DNA of 16,392 nucleotides from a virus (taxonomy: Duplodnaviria > Heunggongvirae > Uroviricota > Caudoviricetes): IMG/VR virus record IMGVR_UViG_2541047751_000017. One strand, written 5' to 3'. The notes below the pieces were generated by a model. It worked only from the letters and a program-made list of their open reading frames with translations, made no database searches and was not told the origin of the DNA. Each line of letters opens with the position of its first letter. Within the stretch, counting starts at the first letter, position 1. Shown piece by piece: positions 1 to 14,586 of this stretch. A program made the position numbers and the translations under genes.

Positions 1-615
1 GTGAGCAGAAAAGATACTAAAGAATTGCTAACTATCTGCATGGTGTACTTTTCAATTTATTTTTGTGCATACATGATAGTCCCAGATGAGTTTGAACATG
101 GCAGTATTATTTATTCCATAACATTCTATTTTTTAGAGCTAACACCAATTTTGGCTATCCTTTTGGCAATACATATTTATTTTTCCTTAAAAAAAGAATC
201 GACTAATTGGGAGAAGGTATGGAGAGACAGAGGATTTCTAACATCACCTAAAGATGATGCATATGAGAGTGATTTTTCTGACTTTATAACAAACTACTAC
301 TCCAGCGAACAATTCAAAAATAGACTGTCTGATGTTTGGGAAACAGCAATGTATTCCATAGGGATTATATTATTGATACTTACTGGTATTGCTCAATATG
401 TTTTTAACATTGACTTATCATTAAATCCTGAAAATTTAATATCGCCATTGATTTTTGGTGAGATATTGATCTTCTCATTCGGAATTTTCTTGAGTGTTGT
501 TCTCTGCTCATTATGCAAGCTACTGACTAACAGGTATCCAGGTGAAGCAAGGAGAGCAAGAAAGGCAAATCCATATTATCTTTTATTTCCTAATGGAGAC
601 AGCAGAGATATCTAA
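1..615 (+). CDS. Hypothetical inner-membrane protein, 4 predicted TM helices; AT-rich cargo gene, possible superinfection-exclusion or abortive-infection factor
   Basis: 204-codon ORF in visibly AT-rich DNA where stops are frequent. Four hydrophobic segments at roughly residues 9-27, 40-63, 116-135 and 146-175. Track start is GTG at 1; an in-frame ATG at 40 is an alternative. Convergent with the 701-aa gene, 19 bp apart. Confidence 0.6.
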   Translation: MSRKDTKELLTICMVYFSIYFCAYMIVPDEFEHGSIIYSITFYFLELTPILAILLAIHIYFSLKKESTNWEKVWRDRGFLTSPKDDAYESDFSDFITNYYSSEQFKNRLSDVWETAMYSIGIILLILTGIAQYVFNIDLSLNPENLISPLIFGEILIFSFGIFLSVVLCSLCKLLTNRYPGEARRARKANPYYLLFPNGDSRDI

Positions 616-634
616 GCCATCCATGGCTAACCAG

Positions 635-2740
635 TTATTGAGCTTCTTTTTGTGATGCCTGTGCGACTCTGGTGAGCGATTGTGTGACCGTACTGATCGC
701 TCTGTCATATGCTGTGCTACCTTTTGGCGTATTTGCCAGACGTAACAAGGCATTTCGTATAACAGGGCTTTCGTATGCCTTCGCTGCTCCGCCTACGGCA
801 CCAGCAGCAGGAACAACAAACGCAGCCGTTTTTAGCATCCCCGCTAATACTGCTGCGTTTATGATGCCACCACCAACTAACAAACCATAAAGCTGCTGAC
901 CATTTAAGTTTTGAACGTTCGCTTTTGCCGCGTGTCTTGTATCGTTGAGGTATTTAATAACGCCGTCCAGTTCCTTTCCATGTACGCCTTTAAAGAAAGT
1001 TGCTGATTGCTTCCTGTTCCGGTGTAACGCATTAATAAACTTCTCAACACTGATATTTCCAGACGGATCAGTCGCCTTATCTACAGCATTCTGAACTATG
1101 GCTGCTCGTGCGTTTTGCCTACCATTGTCATCCAGAAGCCTGTAAAGCTGAGAACGTTCTGATGGGTTTTGGCTAAAAACGAGTTTTGTTACATCCTCAG
1201 GCGTGGCCTTGCCGCTGGCTATTGCCTTTTGAACGCGCGTTCTTCCCATCATGTCATTAAATTTAGACCATGAGCGATCAACCCTTGCCATATTAATGGC
1301 TTCGTCTGCTCCAAGATTTTTGGCTACGGCTTTTTTCATATCCGCCGTATATGCCTTGTAGATAATATCGCTGGCTTTCTGGAGCGTATCTTTATCAACA
1401 GTGTCAGATGACGCCATAAATCGCTTTCGAAGATCGGTTCTGTTTTCCCTCGCCAGACGCAGGTCATTTGGTCCGCTGGTGATATCGTCTTTAAATTGCT
1501 GCAAGACTTTTACCGCGGCTCTATCCTGAGATTTGCCCGGGCGGCTTAACACGGCAATCTGATTGTCGATAGCTTTTACCGTGTTTGAGAGATCGACAGG
1601 GGTATCCCCCATAGCGTCAATTATGCGGTTATATCGCTTTCCTGCTGCCTCAATGAATTTTTGTTGCCCTTTAGTCGCAGATTCATAAAGCTGTTTATCA
1701 GAAATGCCACCCAGACCATCGCTAAATGTTCTGACTAAATTTTCTCGTGCTTGTTGTTGATTCAGCCGATTCTTACCGGTTCCAAAAAAAGGAACTCTTT
1801 CGCCTAATGTCTGAGCCTGACTCTGCATAAAGGTTTTATCTTTTAGCATGTCACTGGTCATTAACGGCAGATTTCTTTCCGATGCAAAGTCGACAGCAGC
1901 CTTTGCTTCAGGCGACATATCACCACGAACAGCCCTCGAAACCGCACTCGCTGTATTTTCCAGCCCCTTACCAATACCACCAATGCCAGCAGAAATTACC
2001 GTTTGTAACGGATCAATATCTTCTCCACCAGCAAGGCTAGTGGCTCCCTGTAGTGCTAAATCTGTAGCTGCTGATTTTCCTATGGCACCAAGCACCGTTC
2101 CAGCCCTGCCCGCTGGTGTAAACGCCAGCGCATTAGCCAGAAACGATGCCACGTCTTGCGGCGATAAACCCGGCTTGTTCAGAGCATAATCACCGGATGG
2201 CAGGGAAACGATAGTGTTACCCTTCTCATCCTGCCTTAATTTCGCTCCCATGCTCTGAAGAATCTTTTCCTGAGATGCGTCAGAGCCGAAAAGTTGAGAC
2301 CATCGAGCTTTTAGAGCATCCATGCTGAGTGAGGTTAACTCTGGGGCAAGGTCGACATTTTGCAGTCTCTCCATCTCTGGAGTCATTCGGCTTTCGCCTG
2401 TTATAGCATCGCGCATCGCAGCCCCAAGACTGGCTCCCTGTTCTGCTGAACGCTCAAGCCCCTCTCTTTGCTGAGTAGCTAACTTTGCATACCCTGACGC
2501 AAGAGAATTATCAGATGATGTATGTTGAATATTTTGAGTTGCTGATTGGGATCGGTCTATTTCATTCGTTGATGGTAGTGGATAGGCAGCATAAAAAGCC
2601 TGCTTAGCCTGCTCTACACTTTCTCCGGCTTGCGAGGCCACGACTTCATTGAAGTATTGCTCCTGAGCCTGCGCTTTTTGTTCTGGTGCTAACGCCTGAT
2701 ACTGTGGAGAGGCGATAACATCTTTCCATGCTTTAGCCAT
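635..2740 (-). CDS. Putative phage ejection/DNA-transfer protein, P22 gp16-like by position and size
   Basis: 701-aa ORF, last gene of a coupled operon; start overlaps the stop of the 473-aa gene by 1 nt (TAATG). Ala/Gln-rich with a Gly/Ala-rich hydrophobic C-terminal segment (LVGGGIINAAVLAGMLKTAAFVVPAAGAVGGAA). Family assignment is from size, order and composition only. Confidence 0.5.
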   Translation of the reverse strand: MAKAWKDVIASPQYQALAPEQKAQAQEQYFNEVVASQAGESVEQAKQAFYAAYPLPSTNEIDRSQSATQNIQHTSSDNSLASGYAKLATQQREGLERSAEQGASLGAAMRDAITGESRMTPEMERLQNVDLAPELTSLSMDALKARWSQLFGSDASQEKILQSMGAKLRQDEKGNTIVSLPSGDYALNKPGLSPQDVASFLANALAFTPAGRAGTVLGAIGKSAATDLALQGATSLAGGEDIDPLQTVISAGIGGIGKGLENTASAVSRAVRGDMSPEAKAAVDFASERNLPLMTSDMLKDKTFMQSQAQTLGERVPFFGTGKNRLNQQQARENLVRTFSDGLGGISDKQLYESATKGQQKFIEAAGKRYNRIIDAMGDTPVDLSNTVKAIDNQIAVLSRPGKSQDRAAVKVLQQFKDDITSGPNDLRLARENRTDLRKRFMASSDTVDKDTLQKASDIIYKAYTADMKKAVAKNLGADEAINMARVDRSWSKFNDMMGRTRVQKAIASGKATPEDVTKLVFSQNPSERSQLYRLLDDNGRQNARAAIVQNAVDKATDPSGNISVEKFINALHRNRKQSATFFKGVHGKELDGVIKYLNDTRHAAKANVQNLNGQQLYGLLVGGGIINAAVLAGMLKTAAFVVPAAGAVGGAAKAYESPVIRNALLRLANTPKGSTAYDRAISTVTQSLTRVAQASQKEAQ

Positions 2741-4161
2741 TAATCACCCCATAGTGAAGAAAAGTTACTGCTGGCTGCTGGCTGTGATACCTGCTCAGAT
2801 TGCGGCAATGTCTGCGACGAAGAAGAAGTTCCTCTGTCAACTGCTGAAATAACCCGCAAAGCATCATAAGCTCGACCAGAAGCAGCTTTCAGCGAATTGA
2901 ACTGGTTTTCCATCTTCCGGCGCTTGGTATCAATGGTTTTTGTGGAGTCGCCAGGCTGAGGGAAATACATTTGATAATATTTTGACATTTCAGCAGGTAC
3001 GATGGCTGCCCCTGTTTCCTGACGGAGTATTGCCATTATTGCGTCATTAGCATTAACAACGTATTGCTGTTCTGTTGGGCTGAGCGTTAAGTTAGCCAGC
3101 GTCCCATTACCCAAAGCATTATTAATGATCGCCACTCGCTGTGGGCTAAGCTGGTCTTTCAGTGTATCTATTGAATCAAGAGCATCCCTAACCCTGTATG
3201 CAAATCCAGCAGCTTTTTTAGCCCCTTCTGGCGACTTTTCCATGATCTTTTGGGCTGTTGGCAAAGCTATTGGACGAAACCCATCTCCAGATATTGGCTG
3301 GTTTAGTTTTCCCTGCTCTTCACTTCCGTCTGTGTAGTATTTTGTGACAGTGCCATCATCGTTTTCTCTAACACTCATTAATTTTTTGGCGTTTGTATTA
3401 ATTCCAGCCGCTGCCGCAAATGCCGCCGCCCCCTCTGGATCCGCCTTTAACATTTGAGCGTACTGATTGTAATTCTGCATTGCTGCTGTTGGTGCATATG
3501 CTGACGTTAACGCATTTGCTCGGCTAATATCCTGCCCTCTCGCCTGAAGTGCTTCGCCAGCCTGATTGCTGCGGATTGTTTCTGCCAACTTGCCACGCTC
3601 AATATCCCGACCTTCCATTTGATCTTTGATATCGAAATACTTCTCATGACCGAGAGAAAACAGTGCCATACTACCAGCAAGCCGCTGGAACCCCTGTGGA
3701 TCATTAACATGCATTTCGGCAACAGACTCAGGAGAAATTCCCAAGCGACGCATTTCATCTTCGTTATCTGCTATGAATTTTCCAAATGCCCCAGTTCCGA
3801 GCGAAGATGCGATTTGAGCACTAGTCGCAAGATGACCAATAGAATTTCTCTGGTCGTCATCAATAAAGCCCATCCCTTTCTGAACGCTTTCAAATTCTTC
3901 TGGATACTCAGAAATAAGACTGCGCATTTTGTTTCTGTCTCCAGACTCAAAAGCCCCGGCATATGCTTTCTGAAACTCTGCTTTACGCTGTTGTTGACGT
4001 GCCTGCTGATTAATCTCAGCAACGCCTCTTAGCCCCTGTAGCGCCATTAAACCTACGTTTGGCTGCTGCTGATACTGCACAGGCTGAGGAACGGAAGAAC
4101 GAGGAGCATTATCATTTTGCGGTGCCATGCTAGGCAGCCCGCCAAGTTGCCATGTCGCCAT
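2740..4161 (-). CDS. Putative phage ejection/DNA-transfer protein, P22 gp20-like by position and size
   Basis: 473-aa ORF (P22 gp20 is about 471 aa, recalled from memory). 1-nt start/stop overlaps with both neighbours. Gln/Ala-rich, no recognisable catalytic motif. Confidence 0.5.
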   Translation of the reverse strand: MATWQLGGLPSMAPQNDNAPRSSVPQPVQYQQQPNVGLMALQGLRGVAEINQQARQQQRKAEFQKAYAGAFESGDRNKMRSLISEYPEEFESVQKGMGFIDDDQRNSIGHLATSAQIASSLGTGAFGKFIADNEDEMRRLGISPESVAEMHVNDPQGFQRLAGSMALFSLGHEKYFDIKDQMEGRDIERGKLAETIRSNQAGEALQARGQDISRANALTSAYAPTAAMQNYNQYAQMLKADPEGAAAFAAAAGINTNAKKLMSVRENDDGTVTKYYTDGSEEQGKLNQPISGDGFRPIALPTAQKIMEKSPEGAKKAAGFAYRVRDALDSIDTLKDQLSPQRVAIINNALGNGTLANLTLSPTEQQYVVNANDAIMAILRQETGAAIVPAEMSKYYQMYFPQPGDSTKTIDTKRRKMENQFNSLKAASGRAYDALRVISAVDRGTSSSSQTLPQSEQVSQPAASSNFSSLWGD

Positions 4162-4838
4162 TAGAATCCAAGCCCCCCAACAAGACCAATAAGCCCACCA
4201 CCAATAGCGCCGGCCGCAGTTCCTATTCCAGGAACAACGGAACCAAGTTGCGCACCCGCTAAAGCGCCTGATGCTGCCCCACCAATACCACGCGCAAGAC
4301 TGGATGGCTGCTGCGCCTGACCTGCACGAATAGCGCCAAGCCCCTGCAAGAGTTGTCCGGTATTATTGGCGTAGTTTTGCCCTGCCGTTGCCTGCCCTGA
4401 TGCCGCATTCATCCCGACATTTAGCAGGTTTCCATAATTTTGCATTTGCCCACTGAGCCAATTGTTATAAAGCATGGGCGCAATGGAAGATAACTGGTTA
4501 CTGGTAGCTGTTGAGCCAAGCCCCCCGGTAGCTTCTGCTGAGACAAGGTTCTGATAACGGGCCTGATCTGCCTGTGTTTTATATAAACCAGAACCAAAGA
4601 AATCATTCGCGGCTTTATTCTGCCCTTCCAGAGTCATCAGTCCTTGTAGTTGTTGTAAAGCAGGCAATCCGACTTCTGCATACGGCTTGAGATTATTCAT
4701 CACCGTATTCCACTGCTCGCGCTGCAAATCAATTGCCTGCTGCTGGGCCTTCGCCTGAGCTTTAGAGGCACCACCATCACCGCCTTTTTCGTATACGGCA
4801 CGATTGAGATGTTTATGAGCTATGTGGGTAATTAACAT
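4161..4838 (-). CDS. Putative phage ejection/DNA-transfer protein, P22 gp7-like by position and size
   Basis: 225-aa ORF (P22 gp7 is about 229 aa, recalled). N-terminal YEKGGDGGAS motif, Gln/Ala-rich centre, Gly-rich hydrophobic C-terminus (GIGTAAGAIGGGLIGLVGGLGF). Overlaps the upstream 153-aa gene by 7 nt. Confidence 0.5.
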   Translation of the reverse strand: MLITHIAHKHLNRAVYEKGGDGGASKAQAKAQQQAIDLQREQWNTVMNNLKPYAEVGLPALQQLQGLMTLEGQNKAANDFFGSGLYKTQADQARYQNLVSAEATGGLGSTATSNQLSSIAPMLYNNWLSGQMQNYGNLLNVGMNAASGQATAGQNYANNTGQLLQGLGAIRAGQAQQPSSLARGIGGAASGALAGAQLGSVVPGIGTAAGAIGGGLIGLVGGLGF

Positions 4839-5293
4839 TCGCTGAATTCCTTATATTGTTGCCGAGTTAACTGATAAAGCGTTACGCCGACGGGTTTACC
4901 ACATCTGATATAAGCATCATCAAGGTGACCAACACGGGTAGCGCCAAGCAAACGGATAATTGCCCGTCCGTATTTCGTGGTGTCAGGAACCATAGTAATG
5001 CTGTTAAGGAATGGTGAGTTTTCGAGAAGCCATTTGCAGAATAATCGATGCCCTTGCAGTGCATATTCACCACGGAATCCGGGGTCGTACACCGCATGGC
5101 ATTCAACAACGCTATGCCAGAAGTTACGCACTTCATGAACGCCAGCCAGCACTAATCCTTCGTAGATGCCGAGATATACCGCATCAGGCTTGATGTAGTA
5201 CGTGTGCCCCGGCTCAACAATATTTTCGGTATTGCCTGGCTCGTTAAGAAAGGCCTGTAATCGCACAGGGTTATCAATAAATTTTAGTTCCAT
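4832..5293 (-). CDS. Hypothetical protein, first large gene of the ejection-protein-like operon (P22 gene-14 position)
   Basis: 153-aa ORF with ATG start at 5293, protein-like composition, co-oriented and overlapping the next gene. Confidence 0.55.
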   Translation of the reverse strand: MELKFIDNPVRLQAFLNEPGNTENIVEPGHTYYIKPDAVYLGIYEGLVLAGVHEVRNFWHSVVECHAVYDPGFRGEYALQGHRLFCKWLLENSPFLNSITMVPDTTKYGRAIIRLLGATRVGHLDDAYIRCGKPVGVTLYQLTRQQYKEFSEC

Positions 5294-5309
5294 GCGATGC
5301 CATCCATTT

Positions 5310-5471
5310 TCACATACAGCCTGCCAGCGCCTTATCTATTAACCCTCGTGCAATTTCATGCAGAGTTGGCGCTACTCCAATTCCTGATTTTTTACGCTGC
5401 TCTTCCTGAATTTTCTTTATCGCTTCCATTTGCTTCTCACTTATCAATACCGGCTTTACTGAAATAGCCAT
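5310..5471 (-). CDS. Possible small ribbon-helix-helix-like DNA-binding protein (53 aa); not in the ORF track
   Basis: Own translation of the minus strand: MAISVKPVLISEKQMEAIKKIQEEQRKKSGIGVAPTLHEIARGLIDKALAGCM. ATG at 5471 is preceded by AAGGGGG 4 nt upstream. Pattern is short strand, helix, G-rich turn, helix, as in Arc/CopG/ParD-type proteins. Stop lies 16 bp from the 153-aa start. Confidence 0.3.
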   Translation of the reverse strand: MAISVKPVLISEKQMEAIKKIQEEQRKKSGIGVAPTLHEIARGLIDKALAGCM

Positions 5472-5504
5472 AACGCCCCCTTAGAACTGTATAAAACAAC
5501 AGTT

Positions 5505-5510
5505 ATTATA
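5505..5510 (-). promoter_or_regulatory. Candidate -10 hexamer (TATAAT on minus strand) for the downstream operon
   Basis: Perfect TATAAT on the minus strand in the AT-rich gap between the terminator and the small ORF RBS; no convincing -35 at 17 bp. Confidence 0.25.
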
Positions 5511-5566
5511 GTTTCACAAATCGCAATATTCATCATCGTAATTGCAAAATATGAAACAAATAGCAC

Positions 5567-5598
5567 AAAAAAATGCCACCGCTCAGTAGCTGGTGGCA
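5567..5598 (-). terminator. Rho-independent terminator ending the primase operon
   Basis: Inverted repeat TGCCACC (5574-5580) / GGTGGCA (5592-5598) with an 11-nt loop; on the minus strand the stem is followed by a 7-U run (plus-strand A run 5567-5573). Confidence 0.55.
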
Positions 5599-5792
5599 TC
5601 GTTCTGTGTGTCAGGTTTTGACAGGTTTTTTATGGACTCTAAAAACTATATTTATGGTGTCGCATTACTCTTCACGGCAGGCGCTTTTCAGTTCTGCCCT
5701 TGCTTCTGGCTCCATTGGTAATTTGATTCGCGATCAGCTATGCGGATGGTTTGCTGAACAGGCATAACAACTTCTCAGAGGCTGTTTTTTGA

Positions 5793-5811
5793 ACTACGAA
5801 AATTTCGTAGT
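5793..5811. promoter_or_regulatory. Perfect palindrome ACTACGAAA-a-TTTCGTAGT, putative protein-binding site in the origin region
   Basis: 9-bp arms with a 1-bp centre; no adjacent U-run in the correct position on either strand, so not a terminator. Confidence 0.3.
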
Positions 5812-5848
5812 GCTCACTTTCAAAAACGTCACGCCCTTGTACACAGGA

Positions 5849-5869
5849 TTTTACGAAAGTCTCGTAAAA
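5849..5869. promoter_or_regulatory. Palindrome TTTTACGA-aagtc-TCGTAAAA, putative protein-binding site
   Basis: 8-bp perfect inverted repeat with 5-bp spacer, between the first palindrome and the iterons. Confidence 0.3.
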
Positions 5870-5919
5870 CACTCTCTGATGCCAGCCAGGTGTTGTGCGC
5901 ATCAATTCAGTCACATTGT

Positions 5920-6030
5920 GTTGGTTCAAAATACCGTGTTGTTGGTTCAGTGTTGGTTCAATAAAAAGAATAAAATCCTTATAAAACAATACTCTTTACA
6001 AATTGAACCAACTGAACCAACTGAACCAAC
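5920..6030. repeat. Iteron array, putative replication origin: six copies of GTTGGTTCA, three direct and three inverted, around a 43-bp AT-rich spacer
   Basis: GTTGGTTCA at 5920-5928, 5941-5949, 5952-5960; reverse complement TGAACCAAC at 6004-6012, 6013-6021, 6022-6030 (tandem 9-bp period); AT-rich spacer 5961-6003. Lies just 3' of the primase-helicase gene. Confidence 0.6.
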
Positions 6031-6055
6031 ACCTTTTCTACGCACATGAAGAAGC

Positions 6056-8815
6056 TCATTCTTCAGATGAGTTATAATCTCCTGGCTGGTAATTGAGTAC
6101 ATAAACGTTTATTTGTCGTCCCTGAATACGTGGTGATTTTCTTTGGTATCCACGACCGCTGTTTGGTGGGGTTAGCATCCCGGCTTTTTTCAACACTTCA
6201 GCAAACTGTTTTGCGTTGAAACCACATGCGATCTCCTTTTCAAATGTGGCCGGGAATGTGTAGAAAATCATTGGGCTTTCGTCATGTTCTCCACGCTGAC
6301 GGTATCCGGCTAAATCTTTGATGGGCAAATCTGCCGGGCTGTATGGAAATGGTGCAAAACGGCTAAGCCCATAGGCATTAAGAAATGCCTCCGTTTGTTC
6401 AATAATCTGCTGATGCTCTTTGTTACCTGTGCCGAACTCACGCAACCATGCGTTATAGCTGTGCTGTATCGCATCACGGCATGTCTGAGCATCCCAGCCT
6501 GTTACAACCTCGCCTAACAACAATGCGGCCTCCAGAATGGCAAATCGCGCGGCTACACGGTGAACCTGCTCACCATAATCGGATGGGATCAGGCTTCTCC
6601 ATCTGCTTTCGCAATCACGAACGGTTTTAATAGCCTGTTGCTGGTGGTCTGCCAGCCATTTAATCCACTCACGCCCGGACGCGCCGTGGTGATGCTGGTA
6701 AGCGTCTTTCAGTGCGTCTGCGTGCTGTTTTCCGTTCTGGTAATCGTGAAAGCGTACTGCTTTACTCAACGGAATATTCAGCAGTCGCACCAGTTGCCCG
6801 GCTTTGGTTTTTCGCCCGGAAGTAGCGATAAATGTTTCTAAATCCATTTCTCCGGTGCTGATTGCCACTGTACGCCAACGTTTTAGATCCCGGTTTCCAC
6901 CATCTTTAGCGCCTTGCAGTTTCCCTACACCGTTAAATAACGCATAGGCAGACTGTGAAACGCTGACAGGATCAGCGCCCTGACCAACTTCATCAAGCGG
7001 CATTAGTCCGTCATTGTGGGCGGCGGCCTCATTTGCCAGCCCCAGCGCGGTTCCGTACCACGTCAGCCGCAGTAAATCAGGGTTGCCGTATAAGCTGCTC
7101 GCCACGTTTGCCGTGGTGGTCTTACCTGCGCTCGACTGCTCATAGAAATGAATGCCGAACCCGTCAGCGCCCACCAGCCCAATCAATGGCGCTGCCAGTG
7201 CTGCGCCGATCCCGGTCATCATTGAATAGTTACCAAAGGCCAGACGCGCCACGTTATCACGCCAGCTTTTCGCGCTCCCTGAGACGGTATATCCGGCTGC
7301 GGCTGAGCTTCTCCCGCTGAACAGCACAGGATTTTCAGGTGTTCCGATGATTTCCCCATCAGGCATGATGTACGCTCCGCATTGCCAGCCAGTGGCATGA
7401 GCAACACGCCACAATTCACGAGAGCCACTGCGTTGTAGCCAGTCTGCCAGTATTGCTCTGAGGCTGCTTTTGGTCGTGACATTTACCCCACCAGCTTTAA
7501 GTGTGCGCCATCCTTCACGTTCACCAATATCAGCCAGTGGAATGGCAGCGGTTGTCGGCGTTTCAGAACCAAACGACAGCCAGCGAAGAATGAGATACTG
7601 GTCTTTATCGTCTCTGCCAGTACCGATAACGCTTAACGGAGAACATAACCAGCTTTCGTTATTGATGATTTCTCCACTCTGGCTGTCAGCTCTCGGAGAT
7701 ACCCAATAAATACCATCCTCGCGGCTTTCTATTCTTGGTTTCAGTGGGTCGGTATCCATAACCTTAAAATCGCTTCCCTCAATGGTCTGTGGCTCCTGTT
7801 TCACGCCATTACCCTGTGGTTGGTACATTGACTTATTGAACGCTTCTGTGGCGCATTTAATGCCGTGTTTTTGGTGGTAATCATTCCAGTCTGCTTTGTG
7901 ATCTGTCGGGGGTAATGCCACCCATCCAGAAACAGATAAAGCTGCTTTTTCTGCTGCTATTCTCCCCGTGTTTTGTCTTCCTTCGCTGTGGTCGTTATCC
8001 GCAGCAATGATGATTTGTGCTGAAGGAAATTTATCCCGCAGTACCTGGGCGACATATAACAGGTTCCCGGCATCAATCGCCGCCACTGTCAGCGCCTCTG
8101 GACGAATTAAATGGGCAGATAATGCCGTTGCCAGCCCTTCTGTAATTAAGATGCTCTGTGTTGTTTCTGGCGCGTTTATGGCGTGATATGCCCCCCGCTT
8201 TGCTGAACCTCTCAGGAGTCTTTTTTCACCATGTGAGGTAATAGTCTGTGCTGCTGTGACTGCGCCGGATTTATCCACCAGCGCCAGCAACAGAGATCCA
8301 TCGGGCAACACGGGGAATGTAAAATCACCTACCCCTTTCGCAACCAGATAATCAGATTTGCCGTTTACAGCCTTTCTGCGCATGTCATCAAACTGACGGG
8401 AAAACGTATCCCGTCTTTGTTGTTCGTCCTTCTCTGCCCTTTTCAGGCGCTCCTGTTCGCGTCGCTGGCGCTCGGTTTCCAGTTGTTCCCGTTTCTGGCT
8501 GGTGGCTTCTGGTGTTTCCGTTGTCCGGTAATCAATACCCAGAACATCAGCGGCAAGAAGCGCCGCCTCTGTTGTGTCGCAGTTATTTACGCGTTTAATT
8601 AAATCCAGCCCATCACCAGCGCCGCACTGATTACAGATGAAGCTACCGCGCCCGTTGTCATCGAACCGGAATCGATCTTTGCCCCCACATGCAGGGCAGG
8701 GAGCATGACGGCGCGGAGAGTCAGGGACATTTATGTTCAGGCAGCCCAGCACATGAGGCCAGTTGTTTTCAGACGCACTGATAACCTGACGGATAAGATC
8801 AATGTTTCGCATCAC
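6056..8815 (-). CDS. Primase-helicase, P4 alpha-like (zinc ribbon, TOPRIM-type primase domain, P-loop NTPase domain)
   Basis: 919-aa ORF. N-terminal CPACGG...CNQCG zinc-binding motif, ITEGLATA (EGYATA-like) and AADNDH TOPRIM-type motifs, Walker A SSAGKTT, charged coiled-coil linker (ERQRREQERLKRAEKDEQQRRD). Track start is GTG at 8815; ATG at 8812 is an alternative. Confidence 0.85.
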   Translation of the reverse strand: MMRNIDLIRQVISASENNWPHVLGCLNINVPDSPRRHAPCPACGGKDRFRFDDNGRGSFICNQCGAGDGLDLIKRVNNCDTTEAALLAADVLGIDYRTTETPEATSQKREQLETERQRREQERLKRAEKDEQQRRDTFSRQFDDMRRKAVNGKSDYLVAKGVGDFTFPVLPDGSLLLALVDKSGAVTAAQTITSHGEKRLLRGSAKRGAYHAINAPETTQSILITEGLATALSAHLIRPEALTVAAIDAGNLLYVAQVLRDKFPSAQIIIAADNDHSEGRQNTGRIAAEKAALSVSGWVALPPTDHKADWNDYHQKHGIKCATEAFNKSMYQPQGNGVKQEPQTIEGSDFKVMDTDPLKPRIESREDGIYWVSPRADSQSGEIINNESWLCSPLSVIGTGRDDKDQYLILRWLSFGSETPTTAAIPLADIGEREGWRTLKAGGVNVTTKSSLRAILADWLQRSGSRELWRVAHATGWQCGAYIMPDGEIIGTPENPVLFSGRSSAAAGYTVSGSAKSWRDNVARLAFGNYSMMTGIGAALAAPLIGLVGADGFGIHFYEQSSAGKTTTANVASSLYGNPDLLRLTWYGTALGLANEAAAHNDGLMPLDEVGQGADPVSVSQSAYALFNGVGKLQGAKDGGNRDLKRWRTVAISTGEMDLETFIATSGRKTKAGQLVRLLNIPLSKAVRFHDYQNGKQHADALKDAYQHHHGASGREWIKWLADHQQQAIKTVRDCESRWRSLIPSDYGEQVHRVAARFAILEAALLLGEVVTGWDAQTCRDAIQHSYNAWLREFGTGNKEHQQIIEQTEAFLNAYGLSRFAPFPYSPADLPIKDLAGYRQRGEHDESPMIFYTFPATFEKEIACGFNAKQFAEVLKKAGMLTPPNSGRGYQRKSPRIQGRQINVYVLNYQPGDYNSSEE

Positions 8816-9170
8816 CGTACCCCACGTGGTCTATAGCGTTTGCGATATGGCTAACCAGCATCTGCCACTTGGTTATTCCGTAATCAGTCAGCATGCCATC
8901 ATTGTTTAGCCACATATCAAATTCAGCGGTTGTCGCAAGTTTCCACTTATCGCCGTGGACAGTCCTCATTGCTGGGTACATGAATGCGCAAATCAGATCA
9001 CAAACATCTGACGGCTTCAGAGATGTAGTAATGATGCGTCCCTCTGGCGTCTGAATTGCCATTTTCTCTTCACCAGTAGAATGAAGGTTATGAATCCACA
9101 CAGCACCAGCAATCTTTGCCACCTGCTCTCCGATTGCGGAGCTAAGCGCCATTTCTGCATTTTCACGCAT
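8799..9170 (-). CDS. Hypothetical protein (123 aa), primase-operon member
   Basis: ATG at 9170 preceded by GGAGG at 5-nt spacing; overlaps the upstream gene stop by 8 nt and the primase start. Confidence 0.55.
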   Translation of the reverse strand: MRENAEMALSSAIGEQVAKIAGAVWIHNLHSTGEEKMAIQTPEGRIITTSLKPSDVCDLICAFMYPAMRTVHGDKWKLATTAEFDMWLNNDGMLTDYGITKWQMLVSHIANAIDHVGYGDAKH

Positions 9171-9504
9171 GAGAACCTCCCGCTACAGTTGCGCCCATGT
9201 CATTAACCATGCTTTGCCATATCTCACGCCCGACGTCAGTCAATCCGTCCTTAGTGACGCAACGATCAAGAAGCTCGATCCCCACGGTTTCCCACTGCGG
9301 GTAGAACACTTTCATGGCTGCCAGTGTGTAGCTATCGATCAGGCTGCGAACGCCTTTTACTCCATTGACGATTTCCACACGGACGGCCTCGCCGTCCGCA
9401 TCAACCATGAAATAGTCCCCGCCGCTGGTGGAGGTAATGTGGTTATACAGTGCCGACGCATACTTATTTGCCAGCGCATTCAGTCGGAAATTTTTAGTAA
9501 TCAT
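9163..9504 (-). CDS. Hypothetical protein (113 aa)
   Basis: ATG at 9504 with AGGA-type RBS; 10-nt gap from upstream gene; stop overlaps the next start. Confidence 0.55.
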   Translation of the reverse strand: MITKNFRLNALANKYASALYNHITSTSGGDYFMVDADGEAVRVEIVNGVKGVRSLIDSYTLAAMKVFYPQWETVGIELLDRCVTKDGLTDVGREIWQSMVNDMGATVAGGSHA

Positions 9505-9514
9505 GGCTCCATCC

Positions 9515-10117
9515 TCAGTGCGTCACTGGTTCCGCTGGCATGCCGTTTTCATTCAGTTCAGCTATAAAGCTGTTGTGAAGTTCAGCAAGCGTTTCACGAC
9601 CAAATGGAGTCAGTGCTCCTTGTTCCACATCCATCATGGCTCTGTAGAAAATGATGGCGCGTTCTGTGCCAGACTCGATGCCAAAACGTTCTATCATCGC
9701 GCCCTCAATGTTGTTTGCCATAGCGAGGCGCTCTGCTACTGGATACAGCGGCATGGCGACGATGCCGTTGGAATAAACAGCCACTTCGGAAGGATTGCCA
9801 GTATCATCAATGATGCTGACAGTGCCGTTTTCCTCTCTCATTTCCAGCATGAATACTGTTGCGATCAGCCATCTCCACATAATGACGTTATGCTGTGATG
9901 TGTAATCGAAATATCCCTGGTTGCCGCCATCGGCTATAGCGAGATGTATTGACATACCTTCATCTGGTTTATCGTCATAATCCCCGGCATCCAGACGATT
10001 TACGGCATCAATATATGAGACGGCCTCAACGCGTTCTGTCATGCCATCGTTGCTGCGGTACATGATGTTTACGCCGTCAGGCGTTGCTTCTGCATGGAAA
10101 GTTAAGAAATTATTCAT
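9515..10117 (-). CDS. Hypothetical protein (about 200 aa from ATG at 10117; track ORF extends to a TTG at 10222)
   Basis: ATG at 10117 preceded by GAGG at 6 nt and overlapping the upstream gene stop by 8 nt, matching the coupling pattern of neighbours. Start at 10222 or at the ATG at 10150 cannot be excluded. Confidence 0.5.
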   Translation of the reverse strand: MNNFLTFHAEATPDGVNIMYRSNDGMTERVEAVSYIDAVNRLDAGDYDDKPDEGMSIHLAIADGGNQGYFDYTSQHNVIMWRWLIATVFMLEMREENGTVSIIDDTGNPSEVAVYSNGIVAMPLYPVAERLAMANNIEGAMIERFGIESGTERAIIFYRAMMDVEQGALTPFGRETLAELHNSFIAELNENGMPAEPVTH

Positions 10118-10331
10118 GTTTCGCCTCGCCTGAATGATTCTGTAACTCATATTTGCCCAACAATTCGTCTGCTTCCTGAATAGCTTCTGGTACGCCATTG
10201 AGCAGTGACATAACCGCGCCAATCATTAACTTGTCTCTGTTGCTGGGGCTGGCCCCTTCAAGCCAGAACCCTAAAACAGTCTGAACCTGTTCGATGCGAC
10301 ATTGCGCTTCAATGAGCTGGATGTTGGTCAT
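10110..10331 (-). CDS. Hypothetical small protein (73 aa)
   Basis: ATG at 10331 with GGAGAG RBS at 6 nt; ATGA overlap with the upstream gene. Confidence 0.5.
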   Translation of the reverse strand: MTNIQLIEAQCRIEQVQTVLGFWLEGASPSNRDKLMIGAVMSLLNGVPEAIQEADELLGKYELQNHSGEAKHE

Positions 10332-10591
10332 TTCGCACTCTCCGCATCGATTAAACTGATATCTATCAGAGAGGTAACTTTTTGTAGCCAGCTAGTGATT
10401 ACTGTCGCCTGTTCCCCTCCCACCGATGGAAGAATCTCATTCATCACATGAACCAGACCTGTGCGCGCCCTGGTAAGCCGTTCAGTCGTGCGATCTGCAA
10501 GAGTGAATGTGTCTGGATATGGCTCTTCACGGCTCAGCAATGATTCAATTTCCAGCTCACACGGATGACGATAAATTAAGTTGATATTCAT
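10328..10591 (-). CDS. Hypothetical small protein (87 aa)
   Basis: ATG at 10591 with GGTGGTG RBS; ATGA overlap with the upstream gene. Confidence 0.5.
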   Translation of the reverse strand: MNINLIYRHPCELEIESLLSREEPYPDTFTLADRTTERLTRARTGLVHVMNEILPSVGGEQATVITSWLQKVTSLIDISLIDAESAK

Positions 10592-10782
10592 TTTTCACCA
10601 CCAAGAATTACCAGCTCTGCACGGGCATCGTTAACCAAAGATGAGCACGCTTTAATCGCATCCACGACATCAGCAGCGTCCATTTCTTCAGCCGAAAGAC
10701 TGACAGCAACCAGGACAGCCGCTGCTTGCTCGATTAATTGAAGTGCGGACGTAAGGCGAGGGGCATTAATTGAGTTATTCAT
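10588..10782 (-). CDS. Hypothetical small protein (64 aa)
   Basis: ATG at 10782; 8-nt overlap with the upstream gene. Confidence 0.5.
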   Translation of the reverse strand: MNNSINAPRLTSALQLIEQAAAVLVAVSLSAEEMDAADVVDAIKACSSLVNDARAELVILGGEK

Positions 10783-10993
10783 TGGTTGCCCCCGTTTTTA
10801 CTGGCATTTCGCCACCTTCCAGCAGGAAATGAACGTCACGAACGGCGAGATCCAATATCGCGAGTAACGCCTTCAGTCTTTCGTCTCGTGAGGGAGAGTT
10901 GCTCACCAGAATGTCGTTAATCACTTCTGTCAGTGTGATGATCTGGCTTGTGCGTTCGAGGGGATCCATATGCACATCGTAGGTTTTAATCAT
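10775..10993 (-). CDS. Hypothetical small protein (72 aa), short form of the 355-codon open frame
   Basis: Internal ATG at 10993 preceded by a near-ideal GGAGG at 6 nt. The residues just upstream in the long frame (AWRWH) look like an RBS read as codons rather than protein. Confidence 0.5.
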   Translation of the reverse strand: MIKTYDVHMDPLERTSQIITLTEVINDILVSNSPSRDERLKALLAILDLAVRDVHFLLEGGEMPVKTGATNE

Positions 10994-11842
10994 GTGCCAC
11001 CTCCATGCGGATACGACCAGCAAAAAAGCAGACGTGATCGCGCACCAGAGAACGGCGAGCATCGCGTTCAGACTCGGCAGCAATATGATGAATTTTGGCG
11101 GTAATTGTCGGGCAATCGCGGCGAACTGCGGCGATAATCCAGATAAATTGCGGTTTTTGGGTAGGGGTAGTAGCCAGCATGTGGCAGCCTCCATTCGATA
11201 GCATGTAACGCTACCACCGGAAACGCCAATTTCGCTGGTGGTAGCCCAGACAGGGTTGGCGTAACCGGCTCGAATGGATACCGGCGCTTCCGAAGAAGCC
11301 CCTGCCTGAGCCACCATTGATTGACAAAGGCGCTGGATTATACACCAACGCCCAAAAAATGGGTGAGTCAGACCTACGACATAAAAAAAGACGCTCGGCG
11401 CGTCATATGTCGCCATTCGATTTACCAGGACGCCAATCCCGGCACCCGTTTTATGAGGTGCCTTATAACCATAAACCGTGTTGCCGCATAACGGCAAGCT
11501 CTTTTTTATGGACTCCGAAAACTCACTATTGGAAGAACCAGAAGCACAGTACATCGCGCTCATTTCGTTAACGTCACGCGCGTGGACGAAGGTTTTTGTG
11601 GAGTCACTACGCGAGCAGAGAAAGCCATCTACGACCAGAAATTCTCTGGCGCAGCCGCTGACCTTCTCAACGCTAACACCATCGACCGTAATTTCTGACA
11701 TAGTTAAGGCATCCGCTCCTACCACCAGCAAATGATAAACTTTGCTTGTATCTGCTGTATTAATGCCTGACTTTGCCGTCATATTGCTGGATTTTGGCGA
11801 CATACCAGCCAGTGAAAATGTCTTCTTCTGGGCGGTTAGCAT
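10775..11842 (-). CDS. Alternative long form: 355-codon open frame from a strongly initiated ATG at 11842; possibly a fused or frameshifted gene
   Basis: ATG at 11842 has GGAGG at 7 nt and overlaps the stop of the upstream 60-aa gene. The frame stays open for 355 codons, but residues encoded between about 11000 and 11250 are Trp/Cys-rich and not protein-like. Confidence 0.25.
11208..11245. promoter_or_regulatory. Inverted repeat GCTACCACC / GGTGGTAGC with 18-nt spacer, possible RNA stem-loop or operator
   Basis: Perfect 9-bp arms at 11210-11218 and 11237-11245; no adjacent U-run, so not a classical terminator. Confidence 0.25.
11481..11508 (+). terminator. Plus-strand terminator-like hairpin, antisense to the main operon
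   Basis: Stem TTGCCG (11481-11486) / CGGCAA (11492-11497), 5-nt loop, 4-nt spacer, then T6 (11503-11508). A TTGACA hexamer sits at 11321-11326 without a well-spaced -10. Confidence 0.25.
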
Positions 11843-12018
11843 TTGTTAACCTCCGCGAACTCCTTCATGAAACGTGCCAGCGGTTGTACGCATGGCGATT
11901 GATACCCGTCGCGATAAAACGTCACTCGGTTGTGAGACACGCTTTCGACAGTAACGAGTGCTCCGTGGGCATCTTTGTAGCGTTTTTGAGGTTGTGGTGT
12001 TCCTGTCGGCTTAAACAT
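11836..12018 (-). CDS. Hypothetical small protein (60 aa from the ATG overlapping the antirepressor stop)
   Basis: ATG at 12018 overlaps the stop of the 277-aa gene (ATGTTTAA arrangement). The track ORF extends upstream to 12105, but that extension overlaps the preceding gene. Confidence 0.45.
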   Translation of the reverse strand: MFKPTGTPQPQKRYKDAHGALVTVESVSHNRVTFYRDGYQSPCVQPLARFMKEFAEVNKC

Positions 12019-12844
12019 GGACCGCCTCCAGACGCTTGGCGAGCCAGCGTTGCGACAGGCGGGTGAGTTCTCCTTTACGCTGCTCATATTCCATGCCCAT
12101 ATCAATTAACGTGATATTGGTGCTTTCGAGATATGAGAGGTGCTCAAGCTGTTCTGCGTTCATATGGTCGCGAGGTTCGCCAGAATAGCCATTTATCCGC
12201 GCCCACTGCTTAGCAGTTAGCCCACCAAGAACGATACGAGAAATCATATTGCTCTCGTTTGTGTAGTGGTGTTGCTGCGTCGTTTTACCCATCTCGGCAC
12301 GGGCCATATTCAGCGCATCGCACATTGGCTTAAAGTTGTTTGCGGCACTGATACGGGCTTTTAGCTGGCGACGATAGCGGGCGGCGATTTCAGGCACGCT
12401 ACGCTGTAATTCTTCCTCGCACTGGATGAAATAACGGCGGATAGCGCGCCCCTGATCATTGCGTTCGATCATTGCCAGTTCTTTCGCCATTCCGACACTT
12501 AACAGATAGTCTTTGCCGGGTCTGCCAGACTGCTTAATCTTGCTGTAAGCCGCGTCATTCGGGCTTTTCCCCAAATTTGGGGAAATTGTTTTATGGACTG
12601 AGTAATCGTGCCCAATGGTGAAGTCATATTCAGAGATGCGATCAGTGATCCATGTAGAGAAGTCTTTTCCCACGCCCAACGCTTTGTGTAACGCTTTTGC
12701 GCTAACAATATTGGTTTCACGCCCACCGATATGACCAGGAATAACCGGGACAATTGCGGCAAATTCATTACCGTTAATTGTGCCCAGAGAGGCGTTCAGA
12801 TGAGGGGCGGCCTCAGAAATTAATCTGCTTTTTTCGATGTTCAT
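12011..12844 (-). CDS. Phage antirepressor-like protein, AntA/AntB N-terminal domain type
   Basis: 277-aa ORF; GGAG RBS 8 nt upstream. N-terminal segments SAKALHKALGVGKDFSTWITDRISEYDFTIGHDY and DYLLSVGMAKELAMIERNDQGRAIRRYFIQCEEEL match, from memory, the conserved AntA-domain pattern of phage antirepressors. Confidence 0.65.
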   Translation of the reverse strand: MNIEKSRLISEAAPHLNASLGTINGNEFAAIVPVIPGHIGGRETNIVSAKALHKALGVGKDFSTWITDRISEYDFTIGHDYSVHKTISPNLGKSPNDAAYSKIKQSGRPGKDYLLSVGMAKELAMIERNDQGRAIRRYFIQCEEELQRSVPEIAARYRRQLKARISAANNFKPMCDALNMARAEMGKTTQQHHYTNESNMISRIVLGGLTAKQWARINGYSGEPRDHMNAEQLEHLSYLESTNITLIDMGMEYEQRKGELTRLSQRWLAKRLEAVHV

Positions 12845-12856
12845 TTTCAGTCTCCG

Positions 12857-13288
12857 TTAGGCGGCGTTAAACGCGTTCGGGTAGAGTTTCAGAATGTCGG
12901 CAATTTCCTGCTGAGAAAGTCCGTTGTGATCATTTATGTTCGCAAGATGGTTAACATGAGTGATCACTTTCAGAACATCACCACGGCAGGAGAAACGGTA
13001 GCGAAGGTGTGTTCCGATACCATCAGGATTCTTTTCGTCGATACGCTCCAGAGTGATTCCAAGCTGGCGTTCTAACTCTGTTGCATAGTTACGACCAGAA
13101 GACAGACGGCAGTAGCGAAGAATGTCATTTTCTGTCCATCCCTCTATACCAGTACGCAGCATATAGACTCTGGCACGATGCTTTTTCGGTGTGCGCTTTG
13201 GTGCTTGAAGGGATTTTGTAAGGGGCGTAACATCAGATACGCGAATATCTGAATTAGCCGCCTGTAATGGGCGGTTTTTCTTTTCCAT
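12857..13288 (-). CDS. Hypothetical protein (143 aa), basic N-terminus, coupled to alpA
   Basis: ATG at 13288 overlaps the alpA stop by 1 nt (TGATG); AAGGTGG RBS at 4 nt. Lys/Arg-rich N-terminal third. No family recognised. Confidence 0.6.
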   Translation of the reverse strand: MEKKNRPLQAANSDIRVSDVTPLTKSLQAPKRTPKKHRARVYMLRTGIEGWTENDILRYCRLSSGRNYATELERQLGITLERIDEKNPDGIGTHLRYRFSCRGDVLKVITHVNHLANINDHNGLSQQEIADILKLYPNAFNAA

Positions 13289-13506
13289 CAGGCCACCTTC
13301 CCGCGGCGTTCTGCCAGCCAGTTATTAATTTCCACCGCATCAAACGCAGTCACGTTATCTGTTAGCTTCACTGGGCGTGGAAGAGTGCCATTTTTAACCC
13401 ATCTATCAATAGTAGGCAGTGAAACACCTAGCAATTCCGGCATGCGAAAGCGACGGATGTATCCAGTTGTTGGGATAGCTGATGATGCTGGCTTGTGTGC
13501 TGTCAT
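13288..13506 (-). CDS. alpA: AlpA-family phage transcriptional regulator/excisionase-like protein
   Basis: Motif RMPELLGVSLPTIDRWVKNGTLPRPVKL is the canonical AlpA helix-turn-helix signature. Start placed at ATG 13506 (72 aa, GGAG RBS at 9 nt); the track ORF extends to 13575 without RBS support. Confidence 0.8.
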   Translation of the reverse strand: MTAHKPASSAIPTTGYIRRFRMPELLGVSLPTIDRWVKNGTLPRPVKLTDNVTAFDAVEINNWLAERRGKVA

Positions 13507-14493: not shown

Positions 14494-14586
14494 AGCGTAA
14501 CCTTTCGCGCTGCCTTAAAGAGTGACCGGAACAGGCGGTAAGGCTTTCCGCTTTTCGCCCCGTCGGGCTAGTTCCGGTCTGTTCGG

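Follow-up and report, generated by a model that had tools for sequence, protein, structure and literature searches.

Why does a frame of 355 codons stay open through a stretch of phage-type DNA whose middle does not read like a protein? The question is raised by positions 10,994 to 11,842 of IMG/VR virus record IMGVR_UViG_2541047751_000017 (Caudoviricetes), a stretch of 16,392 nucleotides that we analyzed whole and refer to as the window. A sequence-only reading of this region had described a long frame between two well-initiated genes and had offered three explanations for it: a frameshifted gene, a real unusual fusion, or a structured regulatory RNA region. Our analysis indicates that the region is very probably the module for immunity and early control in a phage-inducible chromosomal island (PICI) of the EcCIMP1 family, built like that of satellite phage P4, in which the frame is kept open for translation. 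From the analysis as a whole, it seems to be the openness and translation of the frame that matter, and not the sequence it encodes.

The long frame joins its neighbors without a gap

On the minus strand the frame runs without a stop from an ATG at 11842 into the 72-aa gene, as had been described, and ends at a TAA at 10777-10775. This eta-like bridging open reading frame (ORF; 10775-11842, 355 codons) is annotated by PGAP as an "ash family protein" (WP_001437061.1). Its length is far beyond chance, because the probability of an open frame outside the 72-aa gene is, by arithmetic, (61/64)^283, or about 1e-6. The strong ribosome-binding site and ATG attributed to the frame are both present: the start region (11836-11854, minus strand) contains a Shine-Dalgarno (SD) sequence GGAGG at 11854-11850, a 7-nt spacer and the ATG at 11842-11840. 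The 72-aa gene likewise has a start of its own at 10993, preceded by GGAGG at 11004-11000, and is in frame with the long ORF.

At the upstream end, the ATG overlaps the stop codon of a DUF4222 gene (ATGcTAA, 11842-11836; TAA 11838-11836). We read this overlap as a translational-coupling junction, and its context is also conserved in diverged lineages. At the downstream end, the stop overlaps the ATG of the next gene (10782) in the sequence ATGAATAA (10782-10775). From the DUF4222 gene through the long ORF to the gene starting at 10782 there is no untranslated gap, and the gaps from alpA to the primase gene are 12 nt or less throughout only when the long ORF is counted as a gene.

The middle of the frame had been called rich in tryptophan and cysteine, which proved to be a modest rise (Trp 2.8% and Cys 3.7% in residues 124-232; Trp 5.9% in residues 233-283). 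The statement that two other frames are also open holds locally, mostly over the C4 RNA described below, and fails elsewhere. Minus frame 1 is free of stops from 11340 to 11070 and minus frame 2 from 11405 to 11213, and all three minus frames are free of stops across most of C4. A 9-bp inverted repeat had also been noted. Two perfect ones are present, at 11190-11198/11270-11278 and at 11210-11218/11237-11245, and the first of these is the C4 loop together with its downstream target.

Two regulatory RNAs with a three-way pairing lie inside the frame

The suggestion of a structured regulatory RNA region was the right one: the middle of the frame is made up of the RNAs isrK and C4, both on the operon strand, both above their Rfam gathering scores, and with strong covariation. 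isrK (RF01394; 11384-11461, minus strand; 67.1 bits against a gathering score of 50) is the equivalent of the P4 SeqA region. It contains seqA, UCGAAUGG, at 11420-11413, and has an intrinsic terminator at 11404-11383 (GACGC-loop-GCGTC followed by a T run). The C4 antisense RNA (RF01695; 11234-11321, minus strand; 79.5 bits against a gathering score of 45) is the equivalent of the P4 CI RNA, and its match is full-length (model positions 1-87). The spacer between them (11322-11383, minus strand) is variable in sequence, and within the family its length changes in multiples of three only.

The specificity loop of C4, seqB, is UAUCCAUUCGAG (11280-11269), in which CCAUUCGA (11277-11270) is the pairing core of hairpin 2. 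This core is complementary to seqA in isrK and, a second time, to positions 11198-11191 in seqC. The seqC target, UCGAAUGGA (11198-11190; region 11188-11198, minus strand), merges into the SD sequence of a kil/icd-like gene (GGAGG, 11192-11188). For comparison, 120 related loci were collected from one viral collection by an exact isrK-terminator pattern, and 101 of them are distinct. Among the 98 distinct loci with a readable loop there are 29 loop types; for most of them a complement of 7-10 nt occurs at a constant position in isrK, and for all but one there is a complement some 35 nt beyond C4. Of the cells in the C4 stems of 69 distinct relatives, 99.9% are paired, compared with 30-50% in register-shifted controls, and double-sided (compensatory) changes are found in 16 of the 27 pairs. 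Because loop and targets covary and the stems change in a compensatory manner, the RNA cassette is, by the sequence evidence, functional and possesses its own immunity specificity. Taken together, isrK, C4 and seqC can be read as a seqA-CI(seqB)-seqC immunity cassette of the P4 type.

A putative internal constitutive promoter, the analogue of P4 PLE, lies at 11468-11497 on the minus strand (TTGCCG at 11497-11492, 18 nt, TATGGT at 11473-11468), and the 5' end of isrK is 7 nt downstream of its TATGGT. The motif CTTG...N17-18...TATGGTTATAG is seen again in diverged loci; this promoter was assigned by sequence reading and conservation only.

Two further elements were seen close to C4. In the spacer between the isrK terminator and C4 there is a near-perfect -10 element, TGTATAAT (11344-11337, minus strand), with no -35 evident there; it might supply C4 with its own promoter. 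Just 3' of C4, GGUGGUAGC (11210-11218) is almost a second copy of the 5' arm of the outer stem and matches the 3' arm (11237-11245) without a mispair, so that an unprocessed transcript could pair alternatively.

The arrangement follows P4 more closely than Gifsy-1

P4 carries the same two RNA families in the same order, inside the 199-codon eta (three ATGs at 1240 in L002), with the same seqA/seqB/seqC complementarity and a different specificity. In both elements a homologous Kil/Icd-like gene directly follows seqC, the long ORF starts upstream of the internal promoter (putative in the window), overlaps the upstream stop and spans both RNAs, and a primase-type replication gene lies further down the operon. 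Residues 116-220 of the window ORF align in frame with residues 14-133 of P4 Eta, and the alignment ends exactly before the kil ATG. The differences concern the two ends of the frame and the helper. In P4, kil forms the last 65 codons of eta, whereas in the window it is out of frame (199 versus 355 codons); the upstream partner is an AlpA homologue in P4 and the DUF4222 gene in the window; and the window ORF has a 5' part of 380 nt that contains a P22-type pac fragment. The helper is P2 for P4 and P22-like for the window island. The Rfam C4 and isrK models also match Gram-negative PICIs (PMC10111431), and IsrK is a structural homologue of P4 SeqA (PMC4825925).

In phage SfV, orf37 ("immunity region", 278 codons; L144 843-1679) covers an isrK-C4 match and overlaps both the stop of orf36 and the start of orf38, so the bridging layout also occurs in a lambdoid phage; there, unlike in the window, it has cro on one side and the replication genes on the other. 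The C4 family was founded on the P1/P7 immI operon (c4, icd, ant). Citron and Schuster are said to have found in 1990 that the c4 loops of this operon block the ribosome-binding site of icd, which encodes an Icd-type cell-division inhibitor. The window differs from immI in having no antirepressor downstream (antA is upstream) and in having the isrK unit before C4.

The alternative that survives best is the regulatory logic described for Gifsy-1 of Salmonella, in which a short IsrK trans-activates a read-through transcript whose first ORF is translated and coupled to the next gene; C4 would then be a processing by-product. The same two RNA families are present in Gifsy-1, where isrK is likewise followed by a conserved processed RNA of about 80 nt under a short ORF. 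In that element IsrK activates translation of orf45-anrP, the ~80-nt STnc1160 is processed from the read-through transcript, and the ORF, coupled translationally to the next gene, is conserved in its nucleotides and not in its amino acids (PMC4825925). The leader of the window as a whole also has a very stable fold (-135.7 kcal/mol, z = -6.1), in which seqA pairs with seqB in cis. However, the Gifsy-1 ORF has 45 codons and starts after the isrK terminator, an antirepressor lies downstream, and IsrK is reported to act as a trans-activator (PMC4825925). The window has P4 features instead: its context is that of a satellite, seqC leads directly into a Kil homologue, a primase operon follows, and the ORF begins upstream of isrK. 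The three-way covariation moreover includes seqC on the SD sequence, as C4 repression predicts. We therefore regard the Gifsy-1 logic as an unlikely account of this locus, although it and the P4 logic are not mutually exclusive.

The encoded amino-acid sequence is not constrained

Whether the long ORF behaves as a protein was judged by a codon-position test, which we consider more direct than structure prediction. Diversity at the first, second and third positions of the long frame is.43/.46/.44 in the part upstream of isrK,.22/.23/.21 in isrK,.42/.45/.42 in the spacer and.25/.26/.26 in C4. By the same method, kil (.13/.10/.34) and the next gene (.21/.15/.36) show the periodicity of coding sequence. 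On this evidence the long ORF does not appear to behave as a protein over the upstream part, isrK, the spacer or C4.

The family name given to the ORF leads back to the RNAs. The Pfam model PF10554 (Phage_ASH) matches residues 124-232 of the long ORF with 105.3 bits against a gathering score of 26, and these residues correspond to isrK, the spacer, C4 and seqC; in P4 Eta the match falls on the same RNA stretch. With domain and RNAs superimposed in the window ORF and in P4 Eta alike, the Pfam "Ash" family is best read as a translated RNA cassette. The Phage_ASH domain shows no purifying selection at the amino-acid level, diversity being equal at the three codon positions. The name goes back to an old P4 annotation, "put. 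ash gene / cI gene product (aa 1-137)".

This reading explains an annotation problem. The region is matched in 1392 of 5426 complete E. coli genomes, and PGAP treats it variously as an "ash family protein", as a pseudogene or as split pieces; at least 80% of it is present in 479 complete E. coli genomes. An identical stretch of 1451 nt (window 10700-12150) in E. coli GN02350 and cq9 (L001 and L004) has been annotated by PGAP in two ways: in one version as a 355-aa "ash family protein", in the other as a pseudogene fragment of the "ash family" together with an Icd-like protein, while the 72-aa gene carries no annotation.

Could the ORF still encode a functional Ash/Eta protein, such as a regulator of the "Bro network", with the RNAs embedded in a true gene? 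The Phage_ASH match is strong (105 bits), eta is treated as a Bro-network gene in PMC10111431, and the C-terminal 72 residues are a real protein. The N terminus offers a further argument. Long-form ORFs share an N-terminal motif M-I/L-x-x-x-Q-x-K-x-L/F-S/P-L-A-G-L/M (window 11842-11780), found in diverged lineages at loci L014, L029, L048, L053, L056, L066, L069, L072, L094, L095 and L116. Its variation has a mild coding pattern (.28/.17/.37), and it is the only part of the ORF outside kil that looks constrained as a peptide. Against these points, the three codon positions vary equally while neighboring genes are periodic in the same loci, and other lineages have unrelated DNA in place of the segment between the DUF4222 gene and isrK. 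In the window lineage this segment holds an inverted fragment of a phage gene, and kil is crossed in a non-coding frame of a gene that is itself constrained. We consider a functional Ash/Eta protein distinctly improbable.

The frame is kept open across related loci

A frame that is unconstrained in amino-acid sequence might simply be open by accident, so its behavior in the comparison loci carries weight. The frame is open through isrK to C4 in all 101 distinct loci, and in the same phase in 99. Spacer lengths fall into seven classes (51, 63, 69, 87, 99, 102 and 108 nt), all of them multiples of three, in 96 of the 101 loci. Summed over the 101 loci, the numbers of stop codons in phase 0, +1 and +2 are 8/176/147 in the upstream part, 2/39/132 in isrK, 0/66/62 in the spacer and 1/94/57 in C4. 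From the upstream part through C4, this amounts to 11 stops in phase 0 versus 375 and 398 in the other phases. Even the fast-evolving specificity segments avoid stops in phase 0 (1/5/14 in seqB and 1/17/10 in seqA). At 85 of 99 loci the start codon shares bases with the stop of an upstream ORF, mostly as ATGA. Lineages in which the sequence between the DUF4222 gene and isrK is unrelated carry inserts of 250-430 nt that are still open in the same frame.

Closer relatives give the same picture. The ORF is intact (342-355 codons) in copies that are 89-98% identical over a region of 1351 nt, in every copy of the window lineage examined, and in EcCIMP1, which has a different RNA cassette. Because phase, indels in multiples of three, stop avoidance and start/stop overlap agree across the 101 loci, the long frame is neither a frameshift nor a chance opening, and it appears to be kept open by selection.

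These data bear most directly on the possibility that the long ORF is meaningless, with an RNA cassette as the only functional element, the absence of stops due to GC-rich conserved RNA, and "Ash family protein" a spurious name. Such a reading accounts for the lack of codon-position periodicity, the coincidence of the Pfam domain with the RNAs, the two PGAP treatments of identical DNA, and the three frames locally free of stops over C4. It does not account for spacer indels in multiples of three in seven length classes, for the absence of spacer stops in one phase against 66 and 62 in the others, for stop avoidance in the variable loops, or for non-homologous inserts upstream of isrK that are all open in the same frame. 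Nor does it explain the start/upstream-stop overlap, and we judge it very unlikely, slightly more so than a functional protein. That the gene is frameshifted or decaying, or that the assembly or a homopolymer is in error, has next to no probability despite the PGAP pseudogene label in some genomes. The "pseudogene" DNA does not differ from that of copies annotated as an intact 355-aa protein; no copy examined, including many of the complete genomes that hold the region, has a broken frame; and the same 1451 nt occurs in several complete E. coli genomes with 5 substitutions and no indels, which excludes a sequencing error in this copy.

Of the ideas put forward in the sequence-only reading, the frameshift is rejected and the real unusual fusion holds in a way that was not foreseen: the frame appears to be kept open by selection, and its amino-acid sequence is unconstrained. 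Homologues with an intact long protein, which that reading had named as evidence against its view, do exist in a formal sense, although what they conserve is the openness of the frame and not the protein.

A model in which translation of the frame overrides immunity

In P4, nonsense mutations in eta are reported by Forti and colleagues in 1999 to cause termination, a result that also speaks against a meaningless frame. The CI RNA of P4, produced by processing from an untranslated leader, pairs with seqA and seqC and brings about premature termination (PMC4825925). According to the passages on eta in PMC10111431, a constitutive promoter lies inside the gene, its leader is terminated via the CI/seqA interaction and processed to CI, and full-length Eta is translated only from the upstream late promoter, coupled to the upstream gene. 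The same passages state that Eta translation prevents termination (PMC10111431, citing Forti et al. 1999). Because the open, unconstrained and upstream-coupled frame of the window matches eta as reported, we propose a two-state model for the island. Its supporting anatomy is the conserved TTGCCG-18-TATGGT ahead of isrK, the very stable fold of the leader with seqA and seqB paired, and the close spacing of the genes from alpA to the primase gene.

The quiescent state, which we infer from P4 and from the covariation seen here, would depend on the internal promoter at about 11497-11468, making a leader that begins at isrK. Most transcripts would end at the isrK terminator, and read-through would give a stable C4/CI RNA. 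Its seqB core would pair with seqA in isrK and with seqC on the SD sequence of the kil/icd-like gene. Since this leader would lack the start codon of the long ORF, it would remain untranslated, folded and terminated, and the downstream replication genes would be off.

Upon induction, transcripts begun further upstream would cross alpA, antA and the DUF4222 gene and enter the module. Ribosomes ending the DUF4222 gene at TAA 11838-11836 would restart at ATG 11842 and translate the 355-codon frame through the promoter, isrK and its terminator, the spacer, C4, seqC, kil (in its +1 frame) and the 72-aa gene, before passing to the next gene at 10782-10775. The translated RNA would be unfolded and covered, so that neither the RNA pairings, nor the terminator hairpin, nor Rho could halt the polymerase. 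Transcripts from upstream would in this way be insensitive to immunity.

Several observations weigh against this model. Promoter use, translation and antitermination are all inferred. A consensus promoter scan found none above threshold upstream of isrK, and the putative promoter fits the consensus at 8 of 12 positions only. The comparison loci are related to each other and their counts are not independent events, and about 5% of the loci have no bridging frame. The N-terminal motif (xSLAG[L/M]), with its mild coding-type variation, means that part of the ORF product may matter. Finally, the +1 frame of kil, which the window ORF crosses, is also open in 54 of the 79 loci that have the P4 layout and do not use it; the extension of the long frame across kil may for this reason be tolerated rather than selected.

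The principle that we favor for this locus, translation of a frame for its effect on the RNA, is published for P4 and noted for PICIs, and the window is a minor layout variant of it. What about 100 loci add is comparative evidence that an ORF over regulatory RNAs is kept for the act of translation, which was earlier argued from P4 genetics. EcCIMP1-type islands, only recently characterized experimentally, also gain an assigned immunity and early-control module.

Genes downstream of the cassette and a variant of their layout

The Kil/Icd-like gene (10986-11180, minus strand) encodes 64 aa and does not share the frame of the long ORF. Its product matches NF033153 (NCBIfam Icd-like; 71.7 bits) and is 44% identical to P4 Kil. 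Across relatives, diversity at the three codon positions of this gene is.09/.06/.26, by which we take it to be a real coding sequence, and PGAP annotates it in a genome with identical DNA. The 72-aa gene (MIKTYD...; 10775-10993, minus strand) makes up the end of the long ORF. It has 8 nt in common with kil, its start lying over the kil stop (ATGATTAA), and it occupies the position of epsilon in P4; its protein has no family in Pfam or NCBIfam. The downstream genes of the window-type layout show coding periodicity.

Two layouts of these genes can be distinguished. The P4 arrangement, in which kil shares the frame of the long ORF and supplies its stop, is seen in 79 of 95 loci. The remaining 16, including the window, have a one-base difference before the kil ATG that places kil out of frame, in phase +2 relative to the long ORF. 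In this layout the long ORF crosses kil in the +1 frame of kil, with no stops in 16 of 16 loci, and ends at the stop of the gene after kil, which in the window is 211 nt beyond the kil stop.

A pac-like fragment in the first third of the frame

In the 5' third of the ORF, a stretch of 116 nt (11579-11694, plus strand) is, by sequence match, an inverted copy of the pac region of gene 3, a P22-type small terminase gene. In P22-like phages the corresponding sequence lies mid-gene. Window positions 11588-11694 align with P22 4-110, starting exactly at the annotated 22-bp pac site (misc_feature 4..25) and continuing for 85 nt. The 22-mer at the P22 pac position is GAAGGTTTTTGTGGAGTCACTA (11588-11609); it is identical to the canonical P22 pac at 16 of 22 positions, with 6 differences, and the canonical 22-mer was not found in the window with up to 3 mismatches. 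The island 22-mer is matched at 22 of 22 positions in three viral contigs (L133, L137 and L139), within an intact small terminase gene of 164 aa followed by the large terminase gene. Over its 116 nt the fragment is 94% identical to this gene-3 allele, which is itself 92% identical to P22 gene 3 and is present at 99.8% in E. coli (an ST131 prophage; strain MB1159). Unlike pac in P22, the fragment in the window is isolated, inverted and without a terminase gene.

Tentatively, and with somewhat more doubt than confidence, we suggest that the fragment may be a working pac site, captured by islands of the EcCIMP1 family for packaging by P22-like helpers with the matching terminase allele. If so, an island family whose packaging mechanism is reported as unknown would gain a packaging signal and a predicted preferred helper, and the bridging ORF would have to stay open across a captured packaging site. 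The fragment is in any case a lead on how, and by which helpers, EcCIMP1-type islands are packaged.

Kapi1, the helper of EcCIMP1, was rejected as the source of the fragment: its TerS is of another type, and it has no DNA in common with 11461-11842. At 16 of 17 positions the site fits the published P22 pseudo-pac pattern, which adds little, because this pattern occurs barely above chance (4 in the window versus 1.2 expected). Low diversity of the island 22-mer was discounted as evidence of constraint because part of it is ascertainment, the sample having been collected in part by searching for that 22-mer. The pac fragment was not present in the other island lineages examined. That these lineages carry pac fragments of other phages was also rejected, since their inserts between the DUF4222 gene and isrK had no match in the phage collection.

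The 85 nt that follow the 22-mer (11610-11694) have a mean diversity of 0.10 and two haplotypes among 15 distinct island copies, compared with 0.02-0.04 in the flanks, a contrast that repeated exchange with phage alleles might explain. In other island lineages (L014, L048, L056 and L072) the stretch from the ORF start to isrK, where the window lineage has the pac fragment, contains one to three copies of a TTTCG(A/G/T)GAC(A/C)AGTACGCGCGA-like motif, with no match among phages.

The island that carries the module

Window positions 4001-13298 (9.3 kb) are 98% identical to EcCIMP1 of E. coli MP1, with the same gene order and several identical proteins. The order shared by the EcCIMP1 family is alpA, antA, DUF4222, ash, primase, DUF2824 and the ejection-protein genes. 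The window differs from EcCIMP1 in its integrase, in its site (adjoining yicC, versus tRNA-Thr/proA in MP1) and in its isrK-C4 immunity type. In the passages found in PMC11773190, the "Ash family protein" is listed among the most conserved genes of EcCIMP1-like elements, and EcCIMP1 is mobilized by the P22-like phage Kapi1, excision and transfer having been demonstrated experimentally for that pair only. Those passages describe the packaging mechanism as unresolved and mention neither the RNAs nor a pac site (PMC11773190).

A scan of the window for tRNA and tmRNA genes found none. An int-alpA RNA (RF02996; 66 bits versus 35.8) lies at 14512-14578 on the minus strand, just downstream of the integrase gene. 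At 635-5293 (minus strand) Pfam identifies homologues of P22 virion genes, namely DUF2824 and the ejection proteins gp7 and gp20. They are followed, at the position of gp16, by an ORF of 701 aa with no Pfam match, and the last gene of this stretch is a pseudogene in strain cq9. The DUF2824 gene has 82% DNA identity to Kapi1 27948-28536. Just downstream of the primase gene, at 5918-6032, are six copies of GTTGGTTCA, three direct and three inverted, which look like the iterons of a replication origin.

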